From assembly GCA_016196885.1 (NCBI GenBank), contig JACPWU010000062.1, forward strand, positions 1-26,130: a stretch of DNA of 26,130 nt. The letters run 5' to 3'. A program made the translations under genes and the position numbers. This DNA is from Chlamydiota bacterium. GTDB lineage: Bacteria; Auribacterota; JACPWU01. This document shows positions 10,667 to 25,905 of the stretch, one piece after another. Numbering within the stretch: the stretch's first letter is position 1; each line of letters begins with the position of its first letter. The notes below the pieces were generated by a model that worked only from the letters and a program-made list of their open reading frames with translations, had not been told where the DNA came from and ran no database searches.

Positions 10667-10675
10667 TGCCGCCCT

Positions 10676-11173
10676 ATGACTATTTTTTTGATTGTTCTTC
10701 ATGTGGTTTGTTGCTTGGGTCTCATTGCCATCGTGCTTCTTCAGGCGGGAAAGGGGGCGGGGCTCGCCTCCACCTTTGGAGCGGCAGCGGTGGAAACGGC
10801 CTTGGGCGCGGGGGCCAGTGATTTTCTGAAAACGGGTACCAGTTTGATGGCGATTGTTTTTATGATCACAAGCCTGGCCCTGGCTTTTATGACGGCCCGC
10901 CAAAGTTCTTCCGTGGTGAAAAATGTGAGACCCACGCCTGTGACAACAGAAATTCCGATGGATGTTTCTTCAACGGCTGAGCAAGGTTCAGATGCCTTAA
11001 AGGGTAAATCCAAGGCAGAGTTACAAAATATTTTGAAGCAAATGACGCAAGCCTTGCCTTTGGGAAATAAAACCAAAAGCGATACCTCTACGACGCCTTC
11101 TACGCAAGATGCGGCTGCTCCATCCCATTTGGAAGAAAAAAATCAAGCGGATACTGTTCCCACTCAATCCTAA
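10676..11173 (+). CDS. secG: preprotein translocase subunit SecG with a long low-complexity C-terminal tail
   Basis: Two TM helices with LLQAGKGAGL between them (the SecG signature), in the conserved position after tpiA. About 90 extra S/T/P/Q-rich residues follow. Confidence 0.8.
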   Translation: MTIFLIVLHVVCCLGLIAIVLLQAGKGAGLASTFGAAAVETALGAGASDFLKTGTSLMAIVFMITSLALAFMTARQSSSVVKNVRPTPVTTEIPMDVSSTAEQGSDALKGKSKAELQNILKQMTQALPLGNKTKSDTSTTPSTQDAAAPSHLEEKNQADTVPTQS

Positions 11174-12699
11174 TGCGCCCTTGCGAGGTGAACCCTCAAA
11201 TTAAACGCCTCAAAAAAGTGTTTGGCGTGGTGTATTTTGTCCAAGGGATGTCGAGCCTTCCCCAGCTTTCCTTTTTTTATTACATGATGAATGTTTTGAA
11301 ATTGGGGCCTGTCGCCGGCCAGCTCTTTCAGGGGCTCGATCATGTGGCCTGGTTTTTAAAGCCGCTCTGGGGATGGACTTCAGATCGCTTCCCGTTGAGA
11401 GGCTATCGCAGAAAATCCTATTTTTGCCTCATGGCTACCTTGGCCGTCTTTTCATGGTTCTCAATCGCCCTTTGTGCCTATTTTAAAATCACGGCGATGA
11501 TCCCTTATTTTCTTTTTTTGAATTTAGCCCAACTGGCCTATGCCTTTGTAGATGTGGTCGTGGATGCCCTGATGGTGGAGCGGGGGCAAGAACTTAATCA
11601 AGTCGGTCACTTCGTCAATTTTCAATGGATGATGCTGGGTCTTGCAGCTATGCTTGTGGCTCTTTTCAGTGGTTGGTTTCAAACGAAAATAGAAGGGGGG
11701 AAGTTTTCCTACGCACTCATTTTTGCTTTGACAGGACTGTTCCCTCTTTTAACGCTCATCATCGGTGTGAAAAATTTAGAAGAAGAAAAGGGAATTTATC
11801 CTCAGGTATCTCCCGTCTCATTTTGGAAAAAATTCAGGAATCCCTTCAAATCATTTCCTGAGGCGAAGATTCGATTTCGAAATTTTGAAAAAGAGTACCG
11901 GGCCGTTTTGCTTTTGGCCCTTTTCACTGTGGCCTGGAATTTCAGCCCCTCTGTCAGTTATGCGGCTCGTGCTTACTGGGTCAGTCATTTGGAATTTACC
12001 CCTCTAATTCTGGGCATTTTGGGTGCGGCAAGCAATGTGGTTTTGCTTTTGTCCATTCTTGTTTATCGCTGGGTGGTGCGTCGGTTTGCGCTTATTCAAT
12101 GGTATCATTATCTTTATGCGATGGTTGCATTGGGTGTGGTGTCTTTAGCCGCGGGCTATTATCTTTATTTGCCGCCTGGGCATCCCCTGTCTTTTTCCTT
12201 TTCCTTCCCATGGGAGAGAATTCTTTCTTTGGCCGCCGGATTGAAGGAGTCAGTCATGGGATCTTGGATTTATCGCCTTCTGGAAGGGGCTTCTCATTGG
12301 AATCGTTACCATTGGTGGGCTTTGTTCACGGAGACCACGCTGGGGTTTGCCTCTATCGCAGCCTTCATGATTCCGCTCACCCTGGCGGGGGAAGTGGCCC
12401 AGAGGCATCACGCGGGATTCACGTATGCCCTTTTGATGTCCGTTTCCAATTTTACGAATGCCATTGGGAATGTGGCCGGAGGTGTGCTTTATAAACTTTT
12501 TAGTTTATCAGCCATGACAGGGTTCATGAAAGGTTTCGAAACTTCCCTCTTTAATCTTTCTCACAGCCATGATTCAGAAGTTCTCATTCTGCAACTTTTT
12601 GTTTACATCAGCGCTTTTTTTACTCTTCTCGCCATTCCCTTTGTGGGCATGGTGAGAAGGGAGTTGGAAAGAAAGGGAATCAAGGTAAAATTGGGATAG
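11173..12699 (+). CDS. BT1 (folate/biopterin transporter) family MFS-type membrane protein
   Basis: 508 aa and polytopic. The motif LKPLWGWTSDRFPLRGYRRKSYF matches the BT1 family signature LKPxWGxxSD..P..GYRR. Its ATG overlaps the secG TAA (TAATG at 11171-11175). Confidence 0.7.
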   Translation: MRPCEVNPQIKRLKKVFGVVYFVQGMSSLPQLSFFYYMMNVLKLGPVAGQLFQGLDHVAWFLKPLWGWTSDRFPLRGYRRKSYFCLMATLAVFSWFSIALCAYFKITAMIPYFLFLNLAQLAYAFVDVVVDALMVERGQELNQVGHFVNFQWMMLGLAAMLVALFSGWFQTKIEGGKFSYALIFALTGLFPLLTLIIGVKNLEEEKGIYPQVSPVSFWKKFRNPFKSFPEAKIRFRNFEKEYRAVLLLALFTVAWNFSPSVSYAARAYWVSHLEFTPLILGILGAASNVVLLLSILVYRWVVRRFALIQWYHYLYAMVALGVVSLAAGYYLYLPPGHPLSFSFSFPWERILSLAAGLKESVMGSWIYRLLEGASHWNRYHWWALFTETTLGFASIAAFMIPLTLAGEVAQRHHAGFTYALLMSVSNFTNAIGNVAGGVLYKLFSLSAMTGFMKGFETSLFNLSHSHDSEVLILQLFVYISAFFTLLAIPFVGMVRRELERKGIKVKLG

Positions 12700-12700
12700 A

Positions 12701-12735
12701 ACAGAAGACAGAATTCAGGAGTCAGAATTCAGCAG
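12701..12735 (+). repeat. heptad array ACAGAAG ACAGAAT TCAGGAG TCAGAAT TCAGCAG
   Basis: Five tandem 7-mers that overlap the stop and last four codons of the HAD gene. A same-orientation sister array lies at 13381-13415. Confidence 0.7.
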
Positions 12736-13372
12736 CTTTAAGTAATTCCAGCGGCTTGTGTATCAATTTTTTTGCTCCACTTGCTATTAATTCCTCAGCA
12801 GTTCTAAATCCCCACAAGGCTCCCACAGGAAACATACCGGCTCGGGAAGCTGTCTCCATGTCAATTTTGGTGTCTCCGAGAAAAATAAAATTTTTTGCGT
12901 CCACTTTCATTTTTGAGGCGATTTGAAGAGCAGAAGAAGGATTGGGCTTTTTCGGCATTTCGTCATGGGCCCCTTGAATGACATCAAATTTCCATTTCCC
13001 TAAAAATTTTCGGACAATGAGTTTCGTGAAATCATCTGGCTTATTGGAGAGAATGGCCGTTTTGATTTTTTTTCTTTCCAATTCATCCAGCAATTCTGAA
13101 ATCCCTGGATAGGGATGCGTTTTCTCGGCCCATCGGTGATGGTATTCTTCCCTCATTTGTTTGACGGTTCTGGAAATCATATCAGATTTTCGGTGAATTT
13201 CGGGAAGGGCACTCCAGGCTAAATATTCCACACCTTCTCCCACAAAATCTTTGTAGCTTTCCGTTGGATGAAGGGGCAAGCCAAAAGATTTTAAAACCGT
13301 GTTCATCGAGTCTGCCAAATCGGCCAAGGTGTCGAGCAGTGTTCCGTCAAGATCGAAGAGAATGGCTTTCAT
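12722..13372 (-). CDS. HAD-superfamily hydrolase (phosphoglycolate phosphatase-like)
   Basis: MKAILFDLDGTLLDT (DxDxT motif I), ILSNK (motif II) and LGDTKIDMETA (motif IV-like). Confidence 0.85.
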   Translation of the reverse strand: MKAILFDLDGTLLDTLADLADSMNTVLKSFGLPLHPTESYKDFVGEGVEYLAWSALPEIHRKSDMISRTVKQMREEYHHRWAEKTHPYPGISELLDELERKKIKTAILSNKPDDFTKLIVRKFLGKWKFDVIQGAHDEMPKKPNPSSALQIASKMKVDAKNFIFLGDTKIDMETASRAGMFPVGALWGFRTAEELIASGAKKLIHKPLELLKAAEF

Positions 13373-13380
13373 ACTTAAAT

Positions 13381-13415
13381 ACAGAATACAGAAGACAGAA
13401 GTCAGAAGACAGAAA
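13381..13415 (+). repeat. heptad array ACAGAAT ACAGAAG ACAGAAG TCAGAAG ACAGAAA
   Basis: Five tandem 7-mers starting 9 nt upstream of the HAD start codon (minus strand), so they occupy the expected RBS region. Confidence 0.7.
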
Positions 13416-13483
13416 ATATGTAACCTTTTTCTCTTTTAGAACGTCTGTGTTTTTGGAAGGGCAAAAACCCCCTTCAGAAAAGG

Positions 13484-13993
13484 ATGGATCAGATGAAAAA
13501 GGGAATGATTTATGCTGGAGTTGCGGTCGCAATTTTGGCGGGAGGGCTGGGACTCTCTCATTTAAAGGCTCAAGGGCCGCCTTTGAAAGAAATCAGGGCC
13601 GCCTTTCAGGAGGAGGGGCCGGTAGGTCTTAAATTATTAATGGATATTTCAGATCTCAATATGACGGCAGATCAAAAGGTGGCGATTCGATCCATTTTGA
13701 AGAATCATTGGGCTGAGGCGAAACCCTTGCTTCAAAAAATGAATGAGTCTCGCCTTGAATTGAGAGAGGTGATTAGGAATACGCCCCATGACGAGAAGGC
13801 CATTCGGGATGGAGTTTATCGTCGGGCCCAGACAGCTGCAGATCTCGCGGTGCTGAGGGGCAAGGTGTCAGTGGAGGTCCGGTCTATTCTGACACCGGAG
13901 CAAGAGAAAAAAATCGAAGCGATTTTTCATCGCCTGGACCATCGCTTGGAAAATCTGCCGGATCAGGTTGAGGAATTCCTTAAGTCAGAGTAA
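13484..13993 (+). CDS. periplasmic Spy/CpxP-family (LTXXQ motif) protein
   Basis: Signal/anchor segment GMIYAGVAVAILAGGLGLS, LTXXQ-type motifs (MTADQ, LTPEQEKKI), and a helical, charged composition. ATG 13493 has better SD spacing (AAGGA 13479-13483) than ATG 13484. Confidence 0.7.
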   Translation: MDQMKKGMIYAGVAVAILAGGLGLSHLKAQGPPLKEIRAAFQEEGPVGLKLLMDISDLNMTADQKVAIRSILKNHWAEAKPLLQKMNESRLELREVIRNTPHDEKAIRDGVYRRAQTAADLAVLRGKVSVEVRSILTPEQEKKIEAIFHRLDHRLENLPDQVEEFLKSE

Positions 13994-14014
13994 GATGGTG
14001 GGAAAACAAAAGGA

Positions 14015-14638
14015 ATGGATGGCGTGCCCAGCTCTCTCAGTGATGAAGAATTAATTCGTGAGACTCTTGACGGAAACGATGAGGCATTTGAGGAGCTGGT
14101 GCGCCGTCATAAAACGTATGTGATGCGCGTGGTGTATCGTTATGCGCGGGACGAGCATGAAGTAGACGATTTGGCACAGCAGGCTTTTTTGAAGGCTTAT
14201 TTTTCTCTCAAGAGTTATCGAGCCAAGGCTCCTTTTCAACACTGGCTAAGCCGGATTGCAACGCATGTGGCCCTGGATCATCTGCGCTGGCGTCATCGAA
14301 AAAAAGAAGATTTTTTCAGTGAGATGACAGATGAGAATACGGAATTGTTAGAAACGATACTCACGGATGCCTCCGAAGAAAAGTTAGAGGATGATCAAAC
14401 AAAACGAGAGGCTCGAGAACTTTTAGAAAAGGTGTTGGCTAAGTTAACTTCGCAGGACGAGTGGTTGATGAGGGCTGTGGAGTTGGACAATAAAACGATC
14501 AAAGAGATTTCTGAAATGACAGGCTGGAGCATTTCAGCGGTGAAGGTGAGGCTTTTTCGGGCTCGCAAGAAGATGAGGAAGGTTTTGGAGAAGCTACTTA
14601 CTAATGTAGCGGGTCCTGTCCCTCCTCACCCCCACTGA
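14015..14638 (+). CDS. ECF-type RNA polymerase sigma-70 factor
   Basis: Region 2 (AFEELVRRHKTYVMRVVYRY...DDLAQQAFLKAY...WLSRIATHVALDHLR) and region 4 (KEISEMTGWSISAVKVRLFRARKKMRK). The last ~10 codons are encoded by a palindromic element. Confidence 0.9.
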   Translation: MDGVPSSLSDEELIRETLDGNDEAFEELVRRHKTYVMRVVYRYARDEHEVDDLAQQAFLKAYFSLKSYRAKAPFQHWLSRIATHVALDHLRWRHRKKEDFFSEMTDENTELLETILTDASEEKLEDDQTKREARELLEKVLAKLTSQDEWLMRAVELDNKTIKEISEMTGWSISAVKVRLFRARKKMRKVLEKLLTNVAGPVPPHPH

Positions 14639-14705
14639 CGGCATCGTCCCGATGGAATCGGGACTGCTGGCGCTCAGTGGGGGACCCCCAGTCGGGTCAC
14701 CCGCT
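14606..14705. repeat. ~100-nt palindromic element with a central REP-like hairpin, overlapping the sigma-factor 3' end
   Basis: Outer pairs are AGCGGGT (14608-14614)/ACCCGCT (14699-14705) and CCCCCACTGA (14629-14638)/TCAGTGGGGG (14674-14683). The central hairpin GTCCCGAT-GGA-ATCGGGAC (14646-14664) resembles core hairpin B (GCCCGATGAATCGGGC). TTTAT follows. Confidence 0.6.
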
Positions 14706-14735
14706 TTTATGTTGTAGTTGATAGGAGAAGTTAAT

Positions 14736-15047
14736 ATGAAAACAAACAAACTCGATCAATTAGAAAAAATTCTATGGAACTCAGCTCGGGATCAAAAAAT
14801 TTCCCTTCCTGAAGAAGGTTTTGAAAGAAGGGTGATGAGGCGCATTGAACAGGCGAGAAAAGAAAAGGCCCCGAGTTTTTTAGAATTGCTGGGGACCTTG
14901 TGTTGGCGCTGGATGCCGGTCGCAGCCGGTTTTCTCATCGTGTTGGGCGCATGGAACATGAACAGTGCCTCAGATGGATCCGAGTGGTGGATGCTTTTGG
15001 CAGGGAAAGATGCGTCATGGGGATGGTTAACACAGGGAGGATTCTGA
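14736..15047 (+). CDS. putative single-pass membrane anti-sigma factor
   Basis: Sits immediately after the ECF sigma gene. AGGAG at 14723-14727 precedes ATG 14736. Has a cytoplasmic charged N-terminus and one TM helix (WMPVAAGFLIVLGAW). I recognised no family motif. Confidence 0.4.
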   Translation: MKTNKLDQLEKILWNSARDQKISLPEEGFERRVMRRIEQARKEKAPSFLELLGTLCWRWMPVAAGFLIVLGAWNMNSASDGSEWWMLLAGKDASWGWLTQGGF

Positions 15048-15430
15048 TGAGTCGGGTCAAGGCTGTTTTGGGGGTTGTGCTGATTTTTTTAATGGGAGTT
15101 TTTGCAGGGGTCCTCGGGCTCTCTCTTTTTGAAAAGAAAATCATTCAAGAGGCTTTGAGAGGTTCCCCTCGGGCCACCACTCTTTTGGTTGATCGGATGT
15201 CTCGCAGGTTAGATTTAGACCCTCAAGAGAGAGAGCTCTTACGTCAAACCGTTCAAGAATCTCGTCAGAAATTGAGAGAAATTCGTCAAGAGACCCTTTC
15301 TCGTGTGGAAAAGGTCTTTCAAGAGGCAGAGGAAAAAATTCTTGCTTTCTTAAACGAAGGACAAAAGGGAAAATTTAAAAAATTAACAGAAAAGAGGAAA
15401 GCCTTTTTGAGAAAGCTTTCCCAGGAATGA
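15047..15430 (+). CDS. membrane-anchored Spy/CpxP-like periplasmic protein
   Basis: ATG 15047 overlaps the upstream TGA (TGATGA). Signal-anchor VLGVVLIFLMGVFAGVLGLSLF is followed by helical LDPQERELLRQ / LNEGQKGKFKKL repeats. The longer ORF from 14900 overlaps the previous gene and was not used. Confidence 0.55.
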   Translation: MSRVKAVLGVVLIFLMGVFAGVLGLSLFEKKIIQEALRGSPRATTLLVDRMSRRLDLDPQERELLRQTVQESRQKLREIRQETLSRVEKVFQEAEEKILAFLNEGQKGKFKKLTEKRKAFLRKLSQE

Positions 15431-15437
15431 AGTTTCT

Positions 15438-15812
15438 CTATCTCGCCATTTGTGAAATAAATTTTTCCACCACCCCTTGAATTTCAGGAATGCTGAAAGG
15501 CTTGTTGATAAAATCCTTAGCCCCCATTTTCAGGGCCTGGGCATAAATTCCCCAGTCGCCAAAGGCCGTGATGGGAACGAGCGCTGCTTGGGGGCATTTT
15601 TCTTGGGCGCATTTCATCACTTGAAGCCCGTTTACTTCGGGCATGCTGATATCTGTAAAGATGAGGTTGAAGGGGTTTTTAGAAATAAGATCGAGTGCCT
15701 CTCGACCTCGGGTACAAATCGTGATGGCTCTACCCGCGCTCGTTAAAATGGTGCGGAGAATTTCGGCCTGTTCCGGATCATCATCCACCACCAAAATCTT
15801 AAAGGGGTTCAT
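15438..15812 (-). CDS. stand-alone CheY-like response-regulator receiver protein
   Basis: 124 aa. KILVVDDD, phospho-acceptor context LIFTDISMPEVNG, and a conserved K in FINKPF. Confidence 0.9.
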   Translation of the reverse strand: MNPFKILVVDDDPEQAEILRTILTSAGRAITICTRGREALDLISKNPFNLIFTDISMPEVNGLQVMKCAQEKCPQAALVPITAFGDWGIYAQALKMGAKDFINKPFSIPEIQGVVEKFISQMAR

Positions 15813-16006
15813 GGCAACCTCCCGGGTGCTATTCTAGCATGATTTTGTTTCTTCCCAGTAAAAATTACTATGACTTAAATCATAAAGTTATTTGATAGGT
15901 AATAAATGACCTGGAAAAATGTCTTCAAAAGAGTAGAATGAGCAGACAATAAAAGCAAGTGCTTAAGTGTCTAAGTAAATGGGGAAGAACTTGTTTTCAT
16001 GGATCT

Positions 16007-17392
16007 ATGATGTCAAATACCTATCAGTTGATTGTCATCGGGGCTGGGCCTGCGGGAACTTACGGGGCCATTCGTGCTTCTCAATTGGGCATGCGGGTGG
16101 TTTTGGTTGAGAAGGCCCAAGTGGGCGGTGTTTGCTTGAATCAGGGGTGCATTCCTTCCAAGGCGCTTTTGAAATCTGCCAGACTCTTTGAAATTTTTAA
16201 TGAAGCCAAAAGTTTTGGGATTCGCTGTGAAAAAATTTCGCATGATTATTCCTTGATGTGGGAGCGTAGCCGAAAGGTGGTGGAGCGCCTTTCCAAGGGG
16301 ATGGAATTTCTCCTTAAAAAGCACAAGATTGATTTCATCAAAGGGCCTGCTCGTTTAACGGGGCCTCATCAAGTTTCAGTGGAGCCTTCCATTTCCTTTA
16401 AAGCCGACCGGATTTTGATCGCGACGGGGACGGCAGTGAAGGAAATTCCTGGTTTTAAAATAGATGGGAGAAAAATTATCTCGAGCGATCATGCCTTGGC
16501 TCAAACCGTTCTTCCCAAATCCATTTTTATTTTAGGGGGAGGCGCTGTGGGGGCTGAATTTGCTTATTTTTATCGAGCCTTGGGAGTGGATGTCACGATT
16601 TTAGAGGCGCAGGGAAGACTTTTGCCGGGTCTTGAAGTGGAATTGGGCCAAGAGTTGGAAAGGTCCTTTCGAAAAAAAGGAATGAGGGTGCTTTGCGGGA
16701 GCCGAGCGTCTCGGGCGCAAGTGGAGGGGGATGTAGTCAAGGTTTCCTATGAGGATAAAGACCGGGTAGAAAAGGAACTTTATGCTGCTCAGGTGCTCGT
16801 GGCGGTGGGCCGCCAACCTTTCATTGAAGGCTTAGGGCTCGAGGCGCTCGGGGTTCATTTTGAGAATGGATATATTAAAGTCGCAGAAAATTTTCAAACT
16901 TCCGTGCCCTCCCTTTTTGCAGTGGGGGATATCATAGGCCCCCCTCTTTTGGCCCATGCGGCATCTGAGGAGGCCAAGGTAGCGGTGGAGATGATGGCAG
17001 GGAAGAGAAGCGAGGGTCTGGATCGTACTTCTATCCCAAGCTGTGTCTACACACATCCTGAGGTTGCAAGCGTTGGCCTTTCAGAAGAGGATGCGAAAGG
17101 ACAGAATTTTTCTTTCAAAATAGGTAAATTTCCTTTTCGGGCTTTGGGTCGAGCCTTGGCAGAAGGGAGCGACGAGGGATTTGTGAAAACGGTGGTGGAT
17201 GAAAATGGACGACTTTTAGGAGCGCATGTGATCGGAGAGAATGCAACGGAGGTGATTGCGGAACTGACGCTGATTCGCACCTTGGGTTTAACCGTGGAGC
17301 AAATTTCAAAGGTGGTTCATGCCCATCCCACTTTTTCAGAAGGTGTTTTAGAGGGGCTCTTGGCGGCAGAGGGGAGGGCTTTAAATGCTTAA
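16007..17392 (+). CDS. lpdA: dihydrolipoyl dehydrogenase (E3)
   Basis: VIGAGPAGTYGA FAD motif, redox-active disulfide GGVCLNQGCIPSKALL, and C-terminal HAHPTFSE. Start moved to ATG 16007 (MMSNTYQLIVIGAG); the ORF opens at GTG 15959. Confidence 0.9.
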   Translation: MMSNTYQLIVIGAGPAGTYGAIRASQLGMRVVLVEKAQVGGVCLNQGCIPSKALLKSARLFEIFNEAKSFGIRCEKISHDYSLMWERSRKVVERLSKGMEFLLKKHKIDFIKGPARLTGPHQVSVEPSISFKADRILIATGTAVKEIPGFKIDGRKIISSDHALAQTVLPKSIFILGGGAVGAEFAYFYRALGVDVTILEAQGRLLPGLEVELGQELERSFRKKGMRVLCGSRASRAQVEGDVVKVSYEDKDRVEKELYAAQVLVAVGRQPFIEGLGLEALGVHFENGYIKVAENFQTSVPSLFAVGDIIGPPLLAHAASEEAKVAVEMMAGKRSEGLDRTSIPSCVYTHPEVASVGLSEEDAKGQNFSFKIGKFPFRALGRALAEGSDEGFVKTVVDENGRLLGAHVIGENATEVIAELTLIRTLGLTVEQISKVVHAHPTFSEGVLEGLLAAEGRALNA

Positions 17393-17473
17393 ATTGATAA
17401 TGAATAATGGACAATTGGTAATTGACAATGGATAATTGAAAATTATAAATAAATCTTTCCTTCATTATCAATT
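17392..17473. repeat. nine AATNNNN heptads closed by a 13-bp stem
   Basis: AATTGAT AATGAAT AATGGAC AATTGGT AATTGAC AATGGAT AATTGAA AATTATA AATAAAT (17392-17454). AATTGATAATGAA (17392-17404) pairs perfectly with TTCATTATCAATT (17461-17473). Fills the lpdA-lipA gap. Confidence 0.7.
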
Positions 17474-17485
17474 GTTTTAGGACCT

Positions 17486-18373
17486 ATGCTCACATCATCA
17501 CGTCTTCCACAATGGATTCGGGTTCAAGCACCGGGTGGGCAAGAGTATCTGGAGACGAGAAAGATTCTTCAGAGGCTTGCCCTTCGCACGGTTTGTCAAG
17601 AGGCTCGCTGTCCCAACATCGGAGAGTGTTTCGATCATGGGACGGCGACATTCATGATTTTGGGAGATGTATGTACACGTGCTTGCGGGTTTTGCCATGT
17701 CACCAAGGGCAAGCCCATGGCCGTGGATCTGGACGAGCCCGAGCGCTTGGCCGAGGCGACGCTTCAGCTTGGGATGAAACATGTCGTCATCACCTCGGTG
17801 GATCGAGATGATTTGTCTGACGGCGGAGCCGGTCATTTTTCAAAAGTCATTCATGCCATTAAGGCCCGCAGTCCTCAAACGGTGGTAGAGGTACTCACCC
17901 CTGATTTTAGAGGCAATCGGGAGGCACTTCAAACGGTGGTGAAGGCGCCCCTACAGGTGTTTAATCATAATTTGGAAACGGTGCCGCGGCTTTACCAGAG
18001 GGCTAGACGCGGCTCGAAATATGAACGCTCTTTGCAAGTTTTAGCTTGGGCGAAAGAAATCAATCCAAATCTTGTGACGAAATCGGGTTTGATGTTGGGC
18101 TTGGGAGAAGAAGACGAAGAACTTTTTTCTGTATTTCAAGATCTGCGAGCAGTGAATTGTGATGTCTTAACCTTGGGACAATATTTAAGGCCGAGCCTCG
18201 ATCAATTGCCTGTCGAGAGATTTGTCGGCCCTGATGAGTTTAAGGTGCTTGCCGAAAAGGCAAGGCGCTTAGGTTTTAGACATGTAGAGGCCGGGCCCCT
18301 GGTGCGCAGTTCTTACCATGCGTGGAAACATTCAGAAACTGTACTTCGTACTTCGGACATCGTAGATCGTTAA
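17486..18373 (+). CDS. lipA: lipoyl synthase
   Basis: CEEARCPNIGECF auxiliary cluster motif and the radical-SAM motif CTRACGFCHV. The last ~10 codons lie in a heptad array. Confidence 0.95.
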   Translation: MLTSSRLPQWIRVQAPGGQEYLETRKILQRLALRTVCQEARCPNIGECFDHGTATFMILGDVCTRACGFCHVTKGKPMAVDLDEPERLAEATLQLGMKHVVITSVDRDDLSDGGAGHFSKVIHAIKARSPQTVVEVLTPDFRGNREALQTVVKAPLQVFNHNLETVPRLYQRARRGSKYERSLQVLAWAKEINPNLVTKSGLMLGLGEEDEELFSVFQDLRAVNCDVLTLGQYLRPSLDQLPVERFVGPDEFKVLAEKARRLGFRHVEAGPLVRSSYHAWKHSETVLRTSDIVDR

Positions 18374-18437
18374 GAAAACCGGTTCGATCTTCTGTTTTTT
18401 CCTAGTTGATGTTCGAAGTTCGATGTACGATGTTCGT
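18341..18437. repeat. ACGAAGT-family heptad inverted repeat downstream of lipA
   Basis: Left arm GTACTTC GTACTTC GGACATC GTAGATC GT (18341-18370, containing the lipA stop). Right arm GATGTTC GAAGTTC GATGTAC GATGTTC GT (18408-18437). The arms are imperfectly complementary. Confidence 0.6.
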
Positions 18438-18460
18438 TAAGCTAAGAGAGGAACTGAGAA

Positions 18461-19861
18461 ATGTTGTACCGCATAGAAAAAGATGCCTTGGGAGAAAAGA
18501 AAGTTCCAGCCGACGCGTATTACGGGGTTCAGACCGAGAGGGCCATTGAAAATTTTCCCATCAGTGGGATCAAGGCTCATCCTGAATTTATCCGGGCAAC
18601 CGTTCATGTTAAAAGGGCTGCAGCCCGTGTCCATCAGGATTTGAAACTTTTAGAAAGCCGTTTGGCCAAGGCGATCATTTCTGCCTCTGATGAAATTCTT
18701 TCGGGCCAATTCATGGATCAATTTGTTGTGGACATTTATCAGGCCGGTGCAGGCACTTCACATAACATGAATACCAATGAGGTGATTGCCAACCGGGCCA
18801 ACGAAATTTTGGGCGAGAAAAAGGGGTCGTATCAGCCCCTTCATCCGAACGATCACGTAAACATGGCCCAATCTACCAATGATGTGATTCCGACGGCCAT
18901 TCGCATTGCAGCCCTGGGGCTTGTTCAGGAGTTAATCCCCACTTTGGGAACGTTGGCCCAATCGTTTCAAAAGAAGGCAAAGGAGTTCGACCACATTATC
19001 AAGTCCGGGCGGACGCATTTACAAGATGCAGTGCCTATTCGCTTGGGCCAGGAATTTGGCGCTTATGCAGTGAATATCTTGACGCATCAAAATTTAATCC
19101 GAGAGGCCTCAGAACTTTTGAAGAATTTGGGACTGGGGGGAAGCGCGGTGGGAACGGGGCTTAACACCCATCCAGAGTATCGGGTCAGGGTCGCAAAGGC
19201 GCTTTCGGAACAAACAAAACTTCCCTTCAAACCGGCCAAAAATTATTTTGAGACCATGCAAAGTTTGGCTCCCTTCACAAATCTCTCGAGCGCCTTGAGA
19301 AATTTTGCGCTCGACATGATTCGCATTGCGAATGATTTGAGGCTCATGACCTCAGGCCCTCGGGTCGGCTTCGGTGAAATTGTTTTACCCCCTGTTCAAC
19401 CCGGTTCTTCCATCATGCCTGGCAAGGTGAATCCCGTCATGGCTGAAATGTTAAACATGCTCATGTTTCAGGTGATTGGAAATGACACCGCCATCATGAT
19501 GGCCAGTCAGGCGGGACAACTAGAACTCAATGTGATGATGCCCCTCGTCGCTTATCTTCTGCCCCAAACGCTTGAGATTTTGAAAAATTCTCTCCAAGTG
19601 TTCTCTGAAAAATGTGTGCTCGGACTGGAGGCTGACAAAGAAAGATGTCGGCATTACGCTGAATTAACCCCTTCTATTATTACGGCTCTTAGTCCTTTTA
19701 TCGGCTATTCGAAATCGGCCGAGCTCTTTAAAGAATCTTTGAAGAGAAAAGTGGGCGTTCGAGAGCTGGTCATTGAAAAAGGACTGATGACGCGGGAGAA
19801 ATTAGAGAAGGTCTTGGACTTGAAAAAGCTAACAGAGCCTGGAATTCCAGGAAAGGCCTAA
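18461..19861 (+). CDS. aspA: aspartate ammonia-lyase / class II fumarase family lyase (more AspA-like)
   Basis: DAYYGVQTERAIENFPISG, GAGTSHNMNTNEVIANRA and the signature GSSIMPGKVNP. The N-terminal third resembles AspA more than FumC. Assignment within the family is tentative. Confidence 0.75.
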   Translation: MLYRIEKDALGEKKVPADAYYGVQTERAIENFPISGIKAHPEFIRATVHVKRAAARVHQDLKLLESRLAKAIISASDEILSGQFMDQFVVDIYQAGAGTSHNMNTNEVIANRANEILGEKKGSYQPLHPNDHVNMAQSTNDVIPTAIRIAALGLVQELIPTLGTLAQSFQKKAKEFDHIIKSGRTHLQDAVPIRLGQEFGAYAVNILTHQNLIREASELLKNLGLGGSAVGTGLNTHPEYRVRVAKALSEQTKLPFKPAKNYFETMQSLAPFTNLSSALRNFALDMIRIANDLRLMTSGPRVGFGEIVLPPVQPGSSIMPGKVNPVMAEMLNMLMFQVIGNDTAIMMASQAGQLELNVMMPLVAYLLPQTLEILKNSLQVFSEKCVLGLEADKERCRHYAELTPSIITALSPFIGYSKSAELFKESLKRKVGVRELVIEKGLMTREKLEKVLDLKKLTEPGIPGKA

Positions 19862-20060
19862 ATGTTCAAAAAAGAACAATTATGAAAATTTGAACAAGTT
19901 CGTTTAGGGTTTTTCCAAGTTCTTTAACCATCCTTTTATTTTTTAAGATTTTTTAATTCTATAACTCATTCTTAAACAAGTTCTTATCATTTTATTCTCC
20001 TCTATCTGGCTCTTGGCATGTTTGATGCTCTCTTAGTGTTGTCGCAAAGAGGATAAAATT

Positions 20061-20279
20061 ATGAAAACGATGAAGATTTTAATGTTCATGGCAATGGTTC
20101 TTTCAGGGACAGCATTTGCTCAGGAGTCCACTTCTGATTTTGCCCAGGCATTGAAAAACAATCTTCCGGCCTTTGGGCGGCAAATTTACCGTCACGAAAT
20201 TGCTTCGGAATCTCTTCTGAAACCTAGTTTTCAGACTTCGGGTCAGGACATCGTTGTTAAGGCGAAAAAAGATCATTAA
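20061..20279 (+). CDS. small secreted hypothetical protein
   Basis: 72 aa. AGAGGA lies upstream of the ATG. Has a clear signal peptide MKTMKILMFMAMVLSGTAFA-QE and is followed by a terminator-like hairpin. Confidence 0.5.
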   Translation: MKTMKILMFMAMVLSGTAFAQESTSDFAQALKNNLPAFGRQIYRHEIASESLLKPSFQTSGQDIVVKAKKDH

Positions 20280-20313
20280 AAAAAGGGGTAGGGTGTTTTC
20301 TTCACTAGTAGAA

Positions 20314-20344
20314 AGGTCCTCAGGTGGGGGCCTTTTTGCTTTTT
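20314..20344 (+). terminator. intrinsic terminator candidate
   Basis: AGGTCCTC (20314-20321), loop AGGT, GGGGGCCT (20326-20333): 8 bp including two G-U pairs. Followed by TTTTTGCTTTTT. Confidence 0.55.
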
Positions 20345-20554
20345 AGTAGGCTGCTGAAAAAGGCCCATCTGACAATGCCTCCCACTTCGCTCCCTTGTGC
20401 GGCGTACCCTAGCCTGGATTTCTCATCACGAGCTCAAAATGCATACAGCTTGTCATCCCCGAGTGTTTTAATCGGGGATCCAAAAACACCTAAAACTCTG
20501 GATTCCCGCTTACCCCACAGGGGCTATTTCGTTGAAACCTGCGGGAATGTCTAT

Positions 20555-20683
20555 GGAAAAGGTGGTCTCCCCAAGTATTTAAACTTGATGAGCTCTGAAC
20601 ACGAAGTGTTCGGCTATTATGAAGGGGAGAAGAATGGTTGACCCAAACGTCATCCAACATAAGAAAAGGAGACCACCTTTTCC
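20555..20683. repeat. 129-nt element closed by a perfect 16-bp inverted repeat (MITE-like or structured RNA)
   Basis: GGAAAAGGTGGTCTCC (20555-20570) and GGAGACCACCTTTTCC (20668-20683). Internal hairpins are CAAGT/ACTTG (20572-20587) and CTGAACAC-GAA-GTGTTCGG (20595-20613). Confidence 0.6.
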
Positions 20684-20706
20684 AATTTACCGACAGGTGA
20701 TGATGA

Positions 20707-20851
20707 GAAACGGCCATGACTTTCAGTCACAAGGGGGGATGAAAATCACCCTTGTAGTCGCCCCATTTATGGGGCTGCCCGATGAATCGGGCGACTACAA
20801 TTCATCATAACTTATTGTATAAGAATGAGTAAAGACTATTTTCAGATGAAA
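20707..20851 (+). repeat. type-A composite repeat, copy 2 (45-nt core 20754-20798)
   Basis: Same shells as 372-548. The left-shell hairpin is replaced by a different hairpin, TGACT-TTC-AGTCA (20717-20729). Confidence 0.85.
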
Positions 20852-21013
20852 TGCGGGCTAGAACGTACGCCTCCGCGGTCGCTCGTGGGCGCGCTTCCCT
20901 CTGGGACCTTTTTGAGCAGCCTGTCAAGATCAAATGTTTCAGCGACTTGATATTTTTTTCTTGATATACTCTCAGAACTATGAAAAAAGCTTGGGAACTG
21001 GAACCTTAAGAAA

Positions 21014-21232
21014 ATGAAAATTTTTGTGAAGGTGAAGCTTCGTGCCAAAGAATGCCGGGTAAAAAAAATAGATGAAAATCATTTTGAGATAGCTGTGAAA
21101 GAGCCTCCGATTGAAGGTAGGGCGAACGTGGCCGTTACAAAGGCGTTGGCGGAATTTTTTGGGAGAGCTCCCTCCAGAGTGAAAATTCTCTCAGGCTTTT
21201 CATCCAGGCAAAAAATTTTTGAAATAGGGTAA
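21014..21232 (+). CDS. DUF167 (YggU-like) family protein
   Basis: 72 aa. KVKLRAKECRV...IAVKEPPIEGRANVAVTKALAEFFG...VKILSGFSSRQKIFEI matches the DUF167 pattern (ApPveGkAN ... G.tSR.K). Confidence 0.8.
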   Translation: MKIFVKVKLRAKECRVKKIDENHFEIAVKEPPIEGRANVAVTKALAEFFGRAPSRVKILSGFSSRQKIFEIG

Positions 21233-21242
21233 CACGGTTTTT

Positions 21243-21263
21243 ACGAAGTACGATGTACGAAGG
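21243..21263 (+). repeat. three ACGAAGT-family heptads (ACGAAGT ACGATGT ACGAAGG)
   Basis: Same unit family as 3825-3906 and 18341-18437. Sits directly upstream of type-B copy 2. Confidence 0.5.
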
Positions 21264-21269
21264 ACGGTT

Positions 21270-21406
21270 TTTGCTATGAAAGTGAAGCTCACTCTGTAGT
21301 CGCCCCATTTATGGGGCTGCCCGATGAATCGGGCGACTACAAAAAAAGCATGATGGGGAGAACTTTCATCGCACACGATGATCTCGAAAGATCATTGAAA
21401 TTAATA
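21270..21406 (+). repeat. type-B composite repeat, copy 2 (45-nt core 21296-21340)
   Basis: Differs from 6302-6439 at three positions that I can see. Its right end overlaps the moeB-like stop codon (21401-21403). Confidence 0.85.
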
Positions 21407-22549
21407 CGTCGCCATGTTGGGATCAATATCAGTGGCCCAGGCATGAATCCCGCCTTTGAGACTTTTCACCTTCTTAAAGCCCATTTCCTTGAGGAATTTC
21501 GCCGCGTTCAGGCTTCTCACCCCGTGATGGCAATGGGTGACGATCTCATCGGCCGTGTCTAGTTCATTCACGCGCTGAGGTAAATCAGCCAAGGGAATCA
21601 AAACGGATTCTTCCAGATGGCAGATGTCATATTCGTGAGGCTCACGGACATCTACGACAACCACCTTTTTCTTGCTGTCGAGCGTTTTCTTGAGTTCCCG
21701 AGCTGTGATTTCTAGGTCAGAGGCCTCTTTCTGGGTTTCTTCTTGGCCGCGGCCGATTCCACAAAATTCCTCGTAATCAATGAGGCTTGTGAGGGTTGGA
21801 TGATCTGAGCAGATGGGGCAATTCGGGTCTTTCCGGAGCTTCAGCTCCCGAATCTTCATTTCAAGGGCGCTGATAATCAGAAGACGGCCGATCAAGGGTT
21901 CCCCTTGGCCCAAAATAAGTTTAATTGTCTCCGTCGCTTGAATGCAGCCGACAAGGCCTGGAAGAATGCCAAGGACTCCGCCTTCGGCGCAACTGGGCAC
22001 CATCCCGGGAGGAGGAGGCTCTGGATAAAGGCAACGGTAGCAGGGGCCCCGTTCGGCGGCAAAGACAGAGGACTGGCCTTCAAAGCGGAAAATGCTGCCA
22101 TAGACATTGGGCTTTTTCAAGAGGACGCAGGCATCGTTGACCAAATAGCGCGTGGCAAAATTGTCTGTGCCGTCCACCACAATGTCGTAGGGTTCGATCC
22201 ATTGGATGGCGTTGTCAGAAGAAAGTCGCTCTTTATAAATTTCTACATCAATGCTGGAGTTGAGCGAGAGAAGTCTCTCTTTGGCCGATTCAGCCTTAGA
22301 CTCTCCGATCTTGGCTTCACTGTGAATGATTTGGCGCTGGAGATTTGAAAAATCCACCACGTCAAAATCCACAATACCCAAATGGCCCACGCCGGCGGCC
22401 GCCAGATAAAGGGCCAGCGGAGAGCCAAGGCCTCCAGCTCCGATGCAAAGGACCCTTGCGTTACAAAGCTTCTCTTGACCCTCAATGCCCACTTCGGGCA
22501 TGATCAAATGACGGCTGTATCTTGCGATCTGATCTTTGCTTAATGGCAT
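21401..22549 (-). CDS. moeB: MoeB/ThiF-family adenylyltransferase with C-terminal rhodanese domain (MoeZ/MoeBR type)
   Basis: YSRHLIMPEVGIEGQEKL, the nucleotide loop CIGAGGLGSPLALYLAAAGVG, zinc-binding CYRC...CPIC pairs, and a rhodanese active-site loop HCHHGVRS. Confidence 0.9.
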   Translation of the reverse strand: MPLSKDQIARYSRHLIMPEVGIEGQEKLCNARVLCIGAGGLGSPLALYLAAAGVGHLGIVDFDVVDFSNLQRQIIHSEAKIGESKAESAKERLLSLNSSIDVEIYKERLSSDNAIQWIEPYDIVVDGTDNFATRYLVNDACVLLKKPNVYGSIFRFEGQSSVFAAERGPCYRCLYPEPPPPGMVPSCAEGGVLGILPGLVGCIQATETIKLILGQGEPLIGRLLIISALEMKIRELKLRKDPNCPICSDHPTLTSLIDYEEFCGIGRGQEETQKEASDLEITARELKKTLDSKKKVVVVDVREPHEYDICHLEESVLIPLADLPQRVNELDTADEIVTHCHHGVRSLNAAKFLKEMGFKKVKSLKGGIHAWATDIDPNMATY

Positions 22550-22671
22550 AAATCACTCCTAAAATTTTGACTGTAGCAAAAGCGGTTTTCCACGTCACAT
22601 CGTCATTTAGGGTGATTTTATAGCGTTCTTGAGTAAAATTAGCAAGGATTTTGAGATGGATGTAGGGAAAA

Positions 22672-23631
22672 ATGATTCCACACAGAATTTTAGGTAAAAC
22701 AGCACTTAGCATCTCCGAACTGGGTTTCGGAAGTTGGCCCATCGGGGGAGGGAGTTATGGGCCTGTGGAGGATGTTCAGTCTCTTGAAGCCTTGCGAGAA
22801 GCGATGGCTCACGGTGTCAATTTTATAGACACGGCCGATATTTATGGAAAGGGTCATAGCGAGTCTTTGATTGGAGAAGTTGTTGAGGGAAGGGATGATG
22901 TTTTTCTGGCGACAAAGGCAGGATGGGATTTCAGCCATGGGCTCGTTCGAGCCAATTTTGATGTGAGTTATCTAGCGTTTGCTTTGGAGGAGAGTCTTCA
23001 GCGTTTGAAGAGAAATTCAGTCTCCCTTTTTCAATTGCATAATCCGCCGGTTGAATTGACCCAGAATAAGTTCTTATTAGAGTCACTTAGGAAGTGGAAA
23101 GAGAAAGGCAAGATTGATTTTTACGGCGTTTCTGTTCACGGACCCGAAGAGGGAAAAATATGGATTGAAAATACCGATGTTCAAGTGATTCAAATTGTTT
23201 TTAATCTTTTGGATCAAAGACCGCTCAGAGATTTCTTTGGCTTGGTGCGGGAGAGGGGAGTGGGGATCATTGCTCGGGAGCCTTTGGCTTGTGGGATGCT
23301 GACGGAGAAATATTCTAAGGATGTGGTATTTCCCAAAAATGATCATCGCCGTCGCTGGCCTAAAGAAAAGATGGAGCTGGATTTAGAGAAAATACGGCGC
23401 ATTCGGTCTTGGGTGGGTCTTGAAGACATTCCTCTTTCTCAATTGGCATTAGAATTTGTGCTTTCCTTCCGGGAGGTTTCTATCGTGATTCCAGGGATGA
23501 AGACGCCTCATCAGGTCCGGTCCAATTTAAAGGCGTGTGAAGAAAAACATTTGAATCCAGAATTGATTCAGAAGATTTGCAAGCTTTATCGAGAGGATGA
23601 GATTTTTTCCAGAGGGCTTTATCGGAATTGA
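22672..23631 (+). CDS. aldo/keto reductase family oxidoreductase
   Basis: LGFGSW..GG, NFIDTADIYGKGHSE, the HNPP motif region, and IPGMKTPHQV near the C-terminus. Confidence 0.9.
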   Translation: MIPHRILGKTALSISELGFGSWPIGGGSYGPVEDVQSLEALREAMAHGVNFIDTADIYGKGHSESLIGEVVEGRDDVFLATKAGWDFSHGLVRANFDVSYLAFALEESLQRLKRNSVSLFQLHNPPVELTQNKFLLESLRKWKEKGKIDFYGVSVHGPEEGKIWIENTDVQVIQIVFNLLDQRPLRDFFGLVRERGVGIIAREPLACGMLTEKYSKDVVFPKNDHRRRWPKEKMELDLEKIRRIRSWVGLEDIPLSQLALEFVLSFREVSIVIPGMKTPHQVRSNLKACEEKHLNPELIQKICKLYREDEIFSRGLYRN

Positions 23632-23687
23632 GGCTTTGCTGGCGGGGGTTTTTGATTTATAATCTTGGCTTAATAAAGGGAGGGGAT

Positions 23688-24218
23688 ATGAAAAAATTTC
23701 AGGTGATGATTGGAGTCATGGGAATATTTTTTGGGGTTTTAGGGATGTCTTATTCACGAGAGGTGAAAAAAGCGATGGCCGTTTTAAATCCAACCCAGGG
23801 AAATCAAGTTCAAGGGACGATCTCCTTTATGGCTGTGGAGGAGGGGGTTCAGGTGATCGCGGACGTAGATCGCCTAACGCCTGGGAGGCATGGGTTTCAT
23901 ATTCATGAAAAAGGGGATTGCAGTGCGCCCGATGGTTCTTCGGCCGGGGGACATTTTAATCCTCACGCCATGTCTCATGGAGGGCCTATGGACGCGATGC
24001 GCCATGATGGGGACATGGGAAATATTGTTGCGGATGAAAAGGGGCATGCCCATTTGGATTATGTGGATTCGAAAATGACTTTGAGCGGGGAAAATTCTAT
24101 TGTTGGGCGGGGGGTGATTCTCCATGCCCAGGAAGACGATTTCAAAACTCAACCGACAGGAAATGCAGGGGCCCGTGTGGCGTGTGGAGAGATTGAGGCA
24201 GTTGAAGAGAGTAGATGA
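23688..24218 (+). CDS. sodC: periplasmic Cu/Zn superoxide dismutase
   Basis: AAGGGAGGGG precedes ATG 23688. Signal peptide is present, followed by HGFHIHEKGDCS, GGHFNP, HDGDMGN and GNAGARVACGEI motifs. Confidence 0.9.
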   Translation: MKKFQVMIGVMGIFFGVLGMSYSREVKKAMAVLNPTQGNQVQGTISFMAVEEGVQVIADVDRLTPGRHGFHIHEKGDCSAPDGSSAGGHFNPHAMSHGGPMDAMRHDGDMGNIVADEKGHAHLDYVDSKMTLSGENSIVGRGVILHAQEDDFKTQPTGNAGARVACGEIEAVEESR

Positions 24219-24901
24219 AAAAAGGTTTTTTCGTTACAGGGACAGACACAGGCGTGGGCAAGACCCTTGTGAGTTGTGTCTTGGCAAGGATTTTAGGCCG
24301 TTGGGGTTCTGTGGGCGTGATGAAGCCCTTTGCCTCGGGGAACCGCCAGGATGCCTTGCGACTCCAGGGGGCTGCCCGAAGAGATGATTTAACCTTGGAT
24401 GAGGTTAATCCGATTTATTTTAAGGAACCTCTGGCCCCTTACAGCGCCAGGGGTTTTGGGAAAAAGGCGATTGATTTAAAAAAGGTTCTGAAGTCCTATC
24501 AGAGGATTTCGGCCTCTTCTGATTTTATGATTGTGGAAGGGATCGGCGGACTTCATGTGCCTTTAAGCGGGGTTTTAGATGTTGCGGATCTGGTGTTGAA
24601 ATTAAATTTGCCTCTTTTGATTGTGACGCACTTACGGCTGGGAACACTCAATCATACCTTGCTCACAGTGGATTATGCTCGTCAAAAAGGTCTTCAAATC
24701 AAGGGCCTCATTTTTTGCGAGTCGAGAGTGGCAAAGGATTGGGCTTCGAAAACAAATCCGCAAGCGCTGCAGCGGTTAACGCAGCTTCCCCTTTTAGGAC
24801 ATATTCCCTGTTTAAAAGGTCGTTTTGGAGAGAAGGTTGAGAAGGCTGTGAGAGAGAATTTTATTTCTTTGAAATGGCTTAGAAAGTGGGATGTAGAATG
24901 A
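24215..24901 (+). CDS. bioD: ATP-dependent dethiobiotin synthetase
   Basis: FFVTGTDTGVGKT P-loop, VEGIGG, and the LNHTLLT region. Its ATG overlaps the sodC TGA (ATGA). Confidence 0.9.
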   Translation: MKKGFFVTGTDTGVGKTLVSCVLARILGRWGSVGVMKPFASGNRQDALRLQGAARRDDLTLDEVNPIYFKEPLAPYSARGFGKKAIDLKKVLKSYQRISASSDFMIVEGIGGLHVPLSGVLDVADLVLKLNLPLLIVTHLRLGTLNHTLLTVDYARQKGLQIKGLIFCESRVAKDWASKTNPQALQRLTQLPLLGHIPCLKGRFGEKVEKAVRENFISLKWLRKWDVE

Positions 24902-25905
24902 AATCTATTTTAGGATCTTATTTGATTTCCATTTTGGGTTTACTTTTTTTATGGGGCCTGGTGTTGGATTTTATTTTTCTTGCCAAAAGAAAGTATGCGG
25001 CCGAAAAGGTAGGTGTGGGGGATGCCTTCTGGGGCTGGAGAGACGCGGCCGCAGTCGTTCTCTTTTTTGTTCTCTTTGAGTTTGTCTTGGAAGGGATGAG
25101 TCATTTTATTTTTAAGACTTTTGTGATTTCACCTCAAGAGAGAGGACGGATCGCTTTTTTTGCAAATTCTGGGCTGGAGGTTGCGACGGTCCTTTTCTTG
25201 TGCTTCCTTCTGGGCCGACGCTATGGTTTAAAGTGGAAAACATTGGGGTTGGCCCTCATTTCTCATCACATTTCTGCTACGAGCGCCGATTCCGCCTCGT
25301 CTCTCCGTGCAGACTCGGTCGGCCACGCTCAACATGCTGTAAAGTATGCCTCACATGGCCTCGGTCGTCTTCCTCGCATCCAAAGGCGGACTCAGGCGTT
25401 CCTCGCGACGAAATCTGATGAGAAATGCGGGCTAGAGAAACCCTTTTCTTTTTCAACGGCAAAGGAAGGAGTGCTGGCTTATTGCGGCGCTCTTCCTCCT
25501 TTGGTGGGGGTAGGACTCGCGACCCAGTTTTTAGGCCGAATCTGGAAAATTCCTTTAAAGCCTCAGGTTCCGCTTCAGATTTTACAGGGGGAGACCTCGA
25601 TAGCAGCTTGGGCGGTGATGGGTTTTGTGATTGTTATTTTGGTTCCTTTCTTAGAAGAGATTTTTTTTCGTGGTTTTCTTTATGCCCTCTTGAGAAAGTC
25701 CTTTGGGATGGGGAAGGCGATGGTTTTAAATTCTCTTCTTTTTTCAAGTTTACATTTTAGTTTTTTGGCCTTTCTTCCCATTTTTTGCATTGGTTTATTC
25801 TTGGCTTATCTTTATGAAAAGACGGGATCTCTTTTTGCGCCAATGGTTTTTCATGCGTTGAATAATACCGTGGCCGTTTTGCTGGTGGTGTTTTTAATGA
25901 AATGA
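24898..25905 (+). CDS. CPBP-family (CAAX-type) intramembrane metalloprotease carrying an internal palindromic insertion
   Basis: Motif 1 EEIFFRGFLY, motif 2 FSSLHF and motif 3 FHALNN are all present in the C-terminal half. ATG 24898 overlaps the bioD TGA. The ORF opens at GTG 24886. Confidence 0.85.
   Translation: MKSILGSYLISILGLLFLWGLVLDFIFLAKRKYAAEKVGVGDAFWGWRDAAAVVLFFVLFEFVLEGMSHFIFKTFVISPQERGRIAFFANSGLEVATVLFLCFLLGRRYGLKWKTLGLALISHHISATSADSASSLRADSVGHAQHAVKYASHGLGRLPRIQRRTQAFLATKSDEKCGLEKPFSFSTAKEGVLAYCGALPPLVGVGLATQFLGRIWKIPLKPQVPLQILQGETSIAAWAVMGFVIVILVPFLEEIFFRGFLYALLRKSFGMGKAMVLNSLLFSSLHFSFLAFLPIFCIGLFLAYLYEKTGSLFAPMVFHALNNTVAVLLVVFLMK
25258..25426. repeat. 169-nt imperfect palindrome inside the CPBP ORF, read through in frame
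   Basis: Arms 25258-25323 and 25361-25426. The terminal 17 nt match 16/17 in inverted orientation (ATTTCTCATCACATTTC vs ATTTCTCATCAGATTTC). Matching blocks CGAG, CGCC, GA.TCCGCCT and GGCC follow. Confidence 0.65.

Follow-up and report, generated by a model that had tools for sequence, protein, structure and literature searches.

A 734-nt gene-free island (20280-21013) in a 26,130-nt stretch of DNA from a Chlamydiota bacterium (GTDB phylum Auribacterota; assembly GCA_016196885.1, contig JACPWU010000062.1; the whole stretch is referred to as the window) very probably grew out of an intergenic spacer of originally about 50 nt, into which non-autonomous mobile elements inserted one after another. 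The outer arms of the island are the two halves of one copy of a palindromic miniature inverted-repeat transposable element (MITE), designated B, that has been parted at its hairpin apex. Between the halves lies an insert with the ends of a second MITE, designated C, and the right end of C is in turn interrupted by a repeat, element A, that carries a doublet of repetitive extragenic palindromic (REP) sequences. An earlier sequence-only reading of the window had proposed that several non-autonomous elements were inserted into each other or that the stretch is one large composite element; each layer that could be examined in this way proved to be a separate family that is found alone elsewhere.

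A split copy of MITE B forms the outer arms

The terminal motif of B, AGGCTGCTSAAAAAGGNCC, is present at 20348 on the plus strand and at 20922 on the minus strand (≤3 mismatches, 0.09 matches expected), confirming that the arm ends match in inverted orientation. None of 100 shuffles of the sequence gave two such matches. A profile built from 55 canonical B copies with their flanks (nhmmer) matches both arms in the window: profile positions 2-66 align to 20344-20408 (E = 1e-7) and positions 69-158 to 20863-20951 (E = 8e-9), and the break is therefore at the hairpin apex of B. With these values the similarity of the arms, which the sequence-only reading had left to a significance test, is secure. 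The matches score 27-30 bits in the plus orientation versus 11-15 bits in the minus orientation. Over its initial 24 nt the left half agrees with the A-arm consensus of B at every base, and the termini AGGCTGCTGAAAAAGGCCC ... GGNCCTTTTTGAGCAGCCT, with their polar arm differences, are present in the window copy.

Removal of 20413-20861 in silico restores an intact element, a 126-nt palindrome (164 nt with flanks). This palindrome matches the B profile along its whole length (67.8 bits, positions 2-157), and its predicted minimum-free-energy fold is a single hairpin (-58.7 kcal/mol). Its length is close to the family mode of 122-125 nt, and its apex has the GCGGCGTACC-loop-GTACGCCTC arrangement of the family. 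The arms had earlier been drawn as an inverted pair of 67 nt each. The homologous arms are real, but they extend over 62 nt on the left and 59 nt on the right, and the equal length was an artefact of the drawn boundaries. The inner 6-9 nt of the arms as drawn (CTAGCC on one side, GGCTAGAAC on the other) are the target duplication and the end of the next element, and B runs on past the drawn right arm, with a degenerate third terminus that reaches about 20951.

An insert with the ends of MITE C occupies the apical loop of B

The insert in B begins with CTAG-CCTGGATTTCTCATCAC and ends with ...TGCGGG-CTAG. Its ends recur, as had been noticed from the sequence, at the ends of a palindrome within the CPBP/Rce1-like protease gene of the same window, with 18 of 20 bases identical on the left and 15 of 15 on the other side. 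The right end is found in two parts, TGATGAGAAA at 20701-20710 and TGCGGGCTAG at 20852-20861, that are 141 nt apart; when joined they give TGATGAGAAATGCGGGCTAG, which is identical to the CPBP copy at all 20 positions. In the CPBP gene (24886-25905) the C insert adds about 62 residues and the reading frame stays open.

The translated CPBP palindrome matched three "hypothetical proteins" (P0001-P0003) in the protein database, all from the Chlamydiae metagenome-assembled genome (MAG) GCA_016178005.1. The contigs that encode them carry five more copies of C, about 180-190 nt in length and 86-97% identical. The ends of the copies are CCCGCATTTCTCATCA and TGATGAGAAATGCGGG, flanked by CTAG or CTAA. 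Seven sets of ends (the island, the CPBP gene and the five others) are thus present in about 95 kb of the MAG, and C is therefore a genuine, abundant family. A scan of viral contigs for the C end gave nothing.

The central ~70 nt of C match the apex region of Rokubacteria-type B copies at 77% identity, a score that none of 200 shuffles reached under BLAST default scoring, while harsh scoring returned nothing. B and C thus have a common core with different terminal repeats.

Element A, repeat D and segment E

The type-A repeat that had been described in the island, with further copies in the window, is a 141-nt element whose core (20753-20799) consists of two inverted hairpins of about 22 nt, each GTAG-tagged (GTAGTCGCCCCATTTATGGGGC and GCCCGATGAATCGGGCGACTAC). 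Short hairpins with a terminal GTAG, arranged as an inverted doublet in many copies, characterize the GTAG-tagged REP and REPIN sequences, and the core of A has all of these features. GTAG REPs have been defined as a class and are present in the Planctomycetes-Verrucomicrobia-Chlamydiae superphylum; REP dimers nested in longer palindromes are also documented (PMC3733652). Long-form copies of A are found at 369-548 and from 26014 to the end of the window, and GAAA both precedes and ends all long copies (n = 3). The core is also found at 6327, 9804 and 21295 (five other core copies in the window overall), as well as in L193, L194 (L numbers denote the loci fetched for comparison) and 69 metagenome contigs of other lineages; what these 69 contigs have in common with A is the ~50-nt core only. 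In such contigs the REP core GCCCGATGAATCGGGCGACTAC can form tandem arrays, with three copies at an 84-nt period in L133 (297-486) and four at a 90-nt period in L178 (1975-2266).

Other REP doublets in the window are likewise associated with palindromes. One is at the apex of the palindrome 9744-9905 (35-nt arms, 9744-9778 and 9871-9905), and others are within a 120-nt repeat that is present twice with 98% identity (6302-6421 and 21270-21389). Nesting of palindromes is therefore a recurrent feature of this genome. The window also has heptamer-repeat palindromes at gene ends (3824-3907, 7231-7338, 12701-12741, 13374-13414 and 21243-21267), with units such as ACGAAGC/ACGAAGT, CGTGAGT and CAGAAGA; the gene 12722-13372 is bracketed by a pair of them. 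These palindromes recall the short tandemly repeated repetitive (STRR) sequences of cyanobacteria.

Two further components lie between the ends of C. Repeat D is a double hairpin, and its island copy has an extra mini-hairpin of about 24 nt in the second loop. It is 85% identical over 62 nt to L195 5428-5489, where the copy spans 5428-5500, and a further copy is present in the relative L198; these two were the only real matches of a relaxed motif search, the rest being mostly chance. Segment E is a 131-nt palindrome that occurs as a single copy.

Table 1. Features of the island and the related C copy in the window
Feature	Position	Strand	Basis or remark
Terminator-like hairpin and T-run	20307-20344	+	15-pair stem 20307-20340, then TTTTT; 3' of the orphan open reading frame 20061-20279
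TTAG, putative target tetranucleotide (YTAR) at left edge of B	20343-20346		family flank logo CTAG/YTAR; profile alignment from 20344
B left half, terminal inverted repeat (T)AGGCTGCTGAAAAAGGCCCATCTG to apex stem TGCGGCGTACC	20347-20408	+	profile match; 24 nt as in consensus
CTAG, left target-duplication copy of the C insertion	20409-20412		direct repeat with 20858-20861; originally in apical loop of B
C left terminal inverted repeat CCTGGATTTCTCATCAC	20413-20429	+	18/20 including CTAG to inverse of 25416-25435; same terminus in 5 other MAG copies
22 nt outside any assigned element	20430-20451		no match elsewhere
Element D, double-hairpin repeat (GTCATCCCCGA..TCGGGGAT, spacer, ATTCCCGC..GCGGGAATGTC)	20452-20551	+	copies in L195 and L198
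Segment E, 17-bp perfect inverted repeat TGGAAAAGGTGGTCTCC (20554-20570 and 20668-20684), 97-nt loop	20552-20695		17/17
C right terminal inverted repeat, first part TGATGAGAAA	20701-20710	+	severed from the rest by element A
Element A, 141 nt, GTAG-tagged REP doublet (REPIN-like core 20753-20799)	20711-20851	+	sits in right end of C, GAAA on both sides
C right terminal inverted repeat, remainder TGCGGG	20852-20857	+	reconstruction
CTAG, right target-duplication copy of the C insertion	20858-20861		repeat of 20409-20412
AAC, remainder of original apical loop of B	20862-20864		reconstruction to 126-nt palindrome
B right half, GTACGCCTC ... GGGACCTTTTTGAGCAGCCTG	20865-20923	+	profile match E = 8e-9
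Spacer and degenerate third (outer right) B terminus, TTTCAGCGACTTGAT vs consensus TTTTTCAGCATCCTG	20924-20951	+	in profile alignment; weak in window copy
C copy of canonical length in CPBP/Rce1-like gene, in frame	25249-25436	+	E = 1e-65 to C profile

The empty site, gene content and assembly of the island

The island is located between a 72-aa open reading frame (ORF; 20061-20279) on the left and a DUF167 gene (21014-21232) on the right, downstream of the aspartate ammonia-lyase gene aspA (18461-19861). In relatives whose AspA is 74-78% identical, the gene order aspA-DUF167 is kept. The spacer, 1152 nt here, measures 49 nt in two of them (L196 and L197) and 40 nt in a third (L199), so that the comparison of synteny suggested earlier has yielded the empty site. 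In a fourth relative, L198 (AspA 78%), a different repeat follows aspA (6800-6963), and the spacer seems to have been invaded by repeats independently. The L198 contig ends in ...CAGGCTGTCTAAAAAGTGGTCATTGCGAGG, which resembles the edge of another repeat, and its copy of D is at the other end.

The expectation that 20280-21013 has no credible coding sequence was borne out. The island contains four ORFs of 60 aa or more, all without a Pfam match, and the longest open frame of the island centre had no homologue among 5.8 billion proteins; because both searches were empty, a gene or pseudogene in the island was rejected. Rfam 15 gave nothing at the gathering threshold (noise only at E < 10), and a scan of the island found no tRNA or tmRNA. 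The sequence-only reading had named a known non-coding RNA model or a conserved protein-coding gene as what would overturn it, and the Rfam, tRNA, Pfam and protein searches returned neither. It had also called the segment highly structured, and the island indeed folds far better than its shuffles (z = -10.3 on the plus strand, -9.0 on the minus strand). The terminator-like hairpin that it had pointed to is present, with its stem now placed at 20307-20340 ahead of the T-run, and is outside the mobile elements. No repeat of the upstream region 19862-20346 was found elsewhere.

The 72-aa ORF has a signal-peptide-like N-terminus and is an orphan, matching only itself among 1.84 billion representative proteins. 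It is not present in the aspA-DUF167 spacer of relatives and is lineage-specific; it may encode a small secreted protein of this lineage or be a spurious ORF.

Most of the island is supported by independent assemblies. Window positions 10061-20651 and 20668-25549 are each matched at 100% identity by one contig of GCA_016178005.1, and the breaks of these two contigs fall inside the loop of segment E. Two Logan contigs stop at 20479, within element D. These contig ends (20479, 20651 and 20668) are typical repeat-induced breaks. The 16 nt at 20652-20667 are the sole part of the island that rests on the window's own assembly.

Distribution and origin of the B family

The B family was surveyed by scanning 185,579 GTDB species genomes with the AGGCTGCTSAAAAAGGNCC pattern, which returned at least 120 stretches. 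The element is common in bacteria of soil and groundwater. Nearly all of the matches listed are from MAGs of NC10/Methylomirabilota, Rokubacteria, Nitrospirae, Sulfotelmatobacter/Acidobacteria, Deltaproteobacteria and Planctomycetota. The termini face each other at a spacing of 122-125 nt in 37 of the 54 pairs with exact ends, and therefore the canonical B is a palindrome of about 123 nt, extended to about 160 nt where an extra right end is present. The copies are polar: one arm always has ...CTGAAAAAGGCCCATCTGCGGCGTTGG and the other ...CTCAAAAAGGTCCAGATGCAAGGCGG. The apex is conserved and the mid-stem is variable, with 12 predicted pairs altered on both sides by compensatory changes.

In the flanks of 90 copies, CTAG is conserved immediately to the left of B. 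On the right a third terminus-like motif is followed by CTAG (...AGCAGCCT-G-GGCGAAAAC-GGGTTTTTCAGCATCCTG-CTAG); 46 of 91 copies carry this outer terminus, and in 32 of those 46 the left flank is YTAR. Where the left tetranucleotide is non-palindromic, the right side agrees with it directly in six cases and inversely in one, and this excess of direct agreement therefore indicates target-site duplication in the B family. The target duplication of IS5 has been reported as 5'-YTAR-3' (PMC5009759).

The same ends are found on longer elements that encode a transposase; two were seen, both from other phyla. The first (L083 881-2397, 1517 nt) is from a Sphingomonas MAG and has a split transposase, and the second (L116 4032-6119, 2088 nt) is from Thermomicrobiales, has CTAG on both sides and a truncated transposase. 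The proteins belong to the IS5 family by their matches to NF033581 (1.6e-30 and 6.8e-25 in L083, and 2.2e-22) and to DUF772 and DDE_Tnp_1. In L083 the transposase region (1215-2332) is divided between two overlapping ORFs, one matching profile positions 36-156 and the other 156-285, reflecting either a regulatory frameshift or a decayed copy. The shared ends make it probable that B is a MITE derived from an IS5-family insertion sequence (IS). Rfam assigned no family to a canonical B copy, and a literature search with the literal sequence and with keywords found no published description; B is apparently an undescribed, cross-phylum family of IS5-type palindromic MITEs.

A mini-hairpin of about 20 nt, GGGTACCCATCC-N4-GGATGGGT, is inserted at various arm positions in B copies from NC10 and Rokubacteria. 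The copies that bear it are 141-243 nt in length (L003, L007, L018, L019, L026, L067 and L112). It represents a second family of nested repeats, a very small one.

Evidence against the proposed nesting and alternative explanations

Several observations weigh against the proposed series of insertions. The island interior between the ends of C (20430-20700, 271 nt) does not resemble the canonical C interior of about 150 nt, and therefore the island unit shares only the ends of C. These short ends alone score non-significantly against the C profile (E = 0.23 and 0.65); the case for C is therefore argued from position, orientation and the 20/20 reconstruction. CTAG is palindromic and can be read as part of the inverted repeat of C instead of a duplication, and one C copy is flanked by CTGG...CCAG. 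The window copy of B has TTAG on the left and ATAT on the right, past the outer terminus, which is itself degenerate, and B occurs once in the roughly 95 kb sampled of this genome. The same 95 kb, called genes included, has no transposase matching B or C. Segment E is without explanation: no second copy was found in the sampled part of the MAG or in any fetched locus.

The entire block of about 600 nt could be one composite element that transposes as a single unit using the ends of B. The outer ends of B are largely intact, larger B variants with internal inserts do exist (141-243 nt), and the L116 element shows the same ends carrying passenger DNA. Yet neither a second copy of the block nor its junctions are present in the 95 kb of the MAG or the fetched loci, every layer occurs independently elsewhere, and the right end of C is broken by A, which makes such a unit very unlikely. 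The sequence-only reading had also offered the idea of a landing pad. The nested insertions that it implied are supported; the question is whether the hairpin or cruciform of B was itself recognized as a target, in which case nesting at the apex would be mechanistic. In line with this, the insertion is exactly in the apical loop, REP doublets are at the apex of other palindromes in the window (e.g. 9744-9905), 184-nt B variants with apex inserts are found in L043 and L104, and REP dimers inside long palindromes are on record (PMC3733652). The extra pieces in other B copies, however, are at many arm positions with no preference for the apex, and the CTAG in the apical loop is the usual IS5-type target, which suffices for the choice of site; therefore no special hairpin targeting is needed, and a structure-directed mechanism is unlikely.

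A functional, structured non-coding RNA encoded by the ~270-nt centre, or by all of the island, with the repeats incidental, is most improbable. In its favour, folding is very strong (z about -10), and the genes on either side of the island have the same orientation, with a terminator-like hairpin upstream of it. But Rfam has no match, the two strands fold equally well, the stems are perfect DNA palindromes (17/17) with no G-U asymmetry, and the segment is missing in relatives. The centre is a mosaic of D, which is found alone elsewhere, and E, which has no second copy in the fetched loci. A layout created by mis-joined repeats in the metagenome assembly is scarcely credible. Assemblers do struggle here, as the breaks of other assemblies within the island show, but independent contigs reproduce its left and right parts with 100% identity to within 16 nt of each other, and a mis-join would not give ordered and oriented halves of B and C together with matching CTAG repeats.

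A model for the growth of the island

Serial insertion remains the preferred explanation, and the steps and enzymes that we infer are as follows. MITE B, a palindrome of about 125 nt, would have landed at TTAG in the short aspA-DUF167 spacer, moved in trans by a DDE transposase that makes 4-bp YTAR duplications. An element with the ends of C would then have entered the CTAG in the apical loop of B and duplicated it, leaving the halves of B separated by 456 nt. The interior of this C-ended element also holds the double-hairpin repeat D and the palindrome E. Finally, the 141-nt element A would have entered the right inverted repeat of C, presumably disabling it. IS5-type DDE transposases are the likely movers of B and C, and a RAYT-type (REP-associated tyrosine transposase) enzyme that of the REP doublet. 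Under this model the cognate genes would be an IS5-family transposase gene between CCCGCATTTCTCATCA or CAGGCTGCTGAAAAAGG ends and a RAYT gene between GTAGTCGCCC hairpins. Apart from possible incidental effects of its hairpins on transcripts, the stack itself probably lacks any function.

The polar core that B and C share shows conservation over at least five phyla and retains compensatory stem changes, while its terminal repeats are swapped between the two families. One reading, which we consider quite unlikely, is that the core is a functional hairpin module which different transposases have captured repeatedly. Such a module may serve as a terminator or stabilizer at the transcript level, or as a DNA cruciform that draws insertions to a harmless site.

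Comparison with known repeat systems

MITEs derived from the IS5 family resemble B in being short, non-coding and dispersed in many copies, and in having the terminal inverted repeats of an IS5 element with 4-bp YTAR/CTAG flanks (PMC5009759). B differs from them in its near-complete palindrome with a conserved pattern of polar mismatches, in the third terminus-like motif in about half of the copies and in its range over several phyla. The enterobacterial repetitive intergenic consensus (ERIC) sequences, or intergenic repeat units (IRU), of the Enterobacteriaceae are imperfect palindromes of about 127 bp that are intergenic and transcribed, with longer variants that have insertions at fixed sites. 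B and its 141-243-nt variants have the same overall architecture but no sequence relationship to them. To our knowledge no IS matching ERIC is known, whereas the ends of B match an IS5-family element.

REP and REPIN sequences are mobilized by RAYT tyrosine transposases, which are IS200/IS605-like. The core of A resembles them as a GTAG-tagged, multi-copy doublet, and differs in being embedded in a repeat of 141-180 nt. IS1397 and ISKpn1 are autonomous IS3-family elements that target REP loops with demonstrated structure or sequence specificity. Here too a mobile element is found in the loop of a palindromic repeat; the island differs from these systems in that a non-autonomous element came in, at an ordinary CTAG. 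The Rickettsia palindromic elements (RPE) belong to a lineage of obligate intracellular bacteria and are palindromic repeats found in frame in protein-coding genes. C shares this in-frame insertion, as seen in the CPBP gene, but differs in sequence, host phylum and ends, having IS-like inverted repeats and CTAG flanks. RPE are also covered in the account of palindromic repeats cited above (PMC3733652).

Significance

Nested MITEs and REPs are of a known kind, and the island is ordinary, though tidy, nesting of selfish DNA that reveals no new biological mechanism. Its layers peel off cleanly, which makes it a worked example of how serial MITE/REP nesting produces structured intergenic islands in uncultured bacteria. 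The very widespread B-type MITE breaks metagenome assemblies and spawns spurious "hypothetical proteins". Recognizing it should help annotation and binning in NC10, Rokubacteria, Nitrospirae, Acidobacteria and environmental Chlamydiae.

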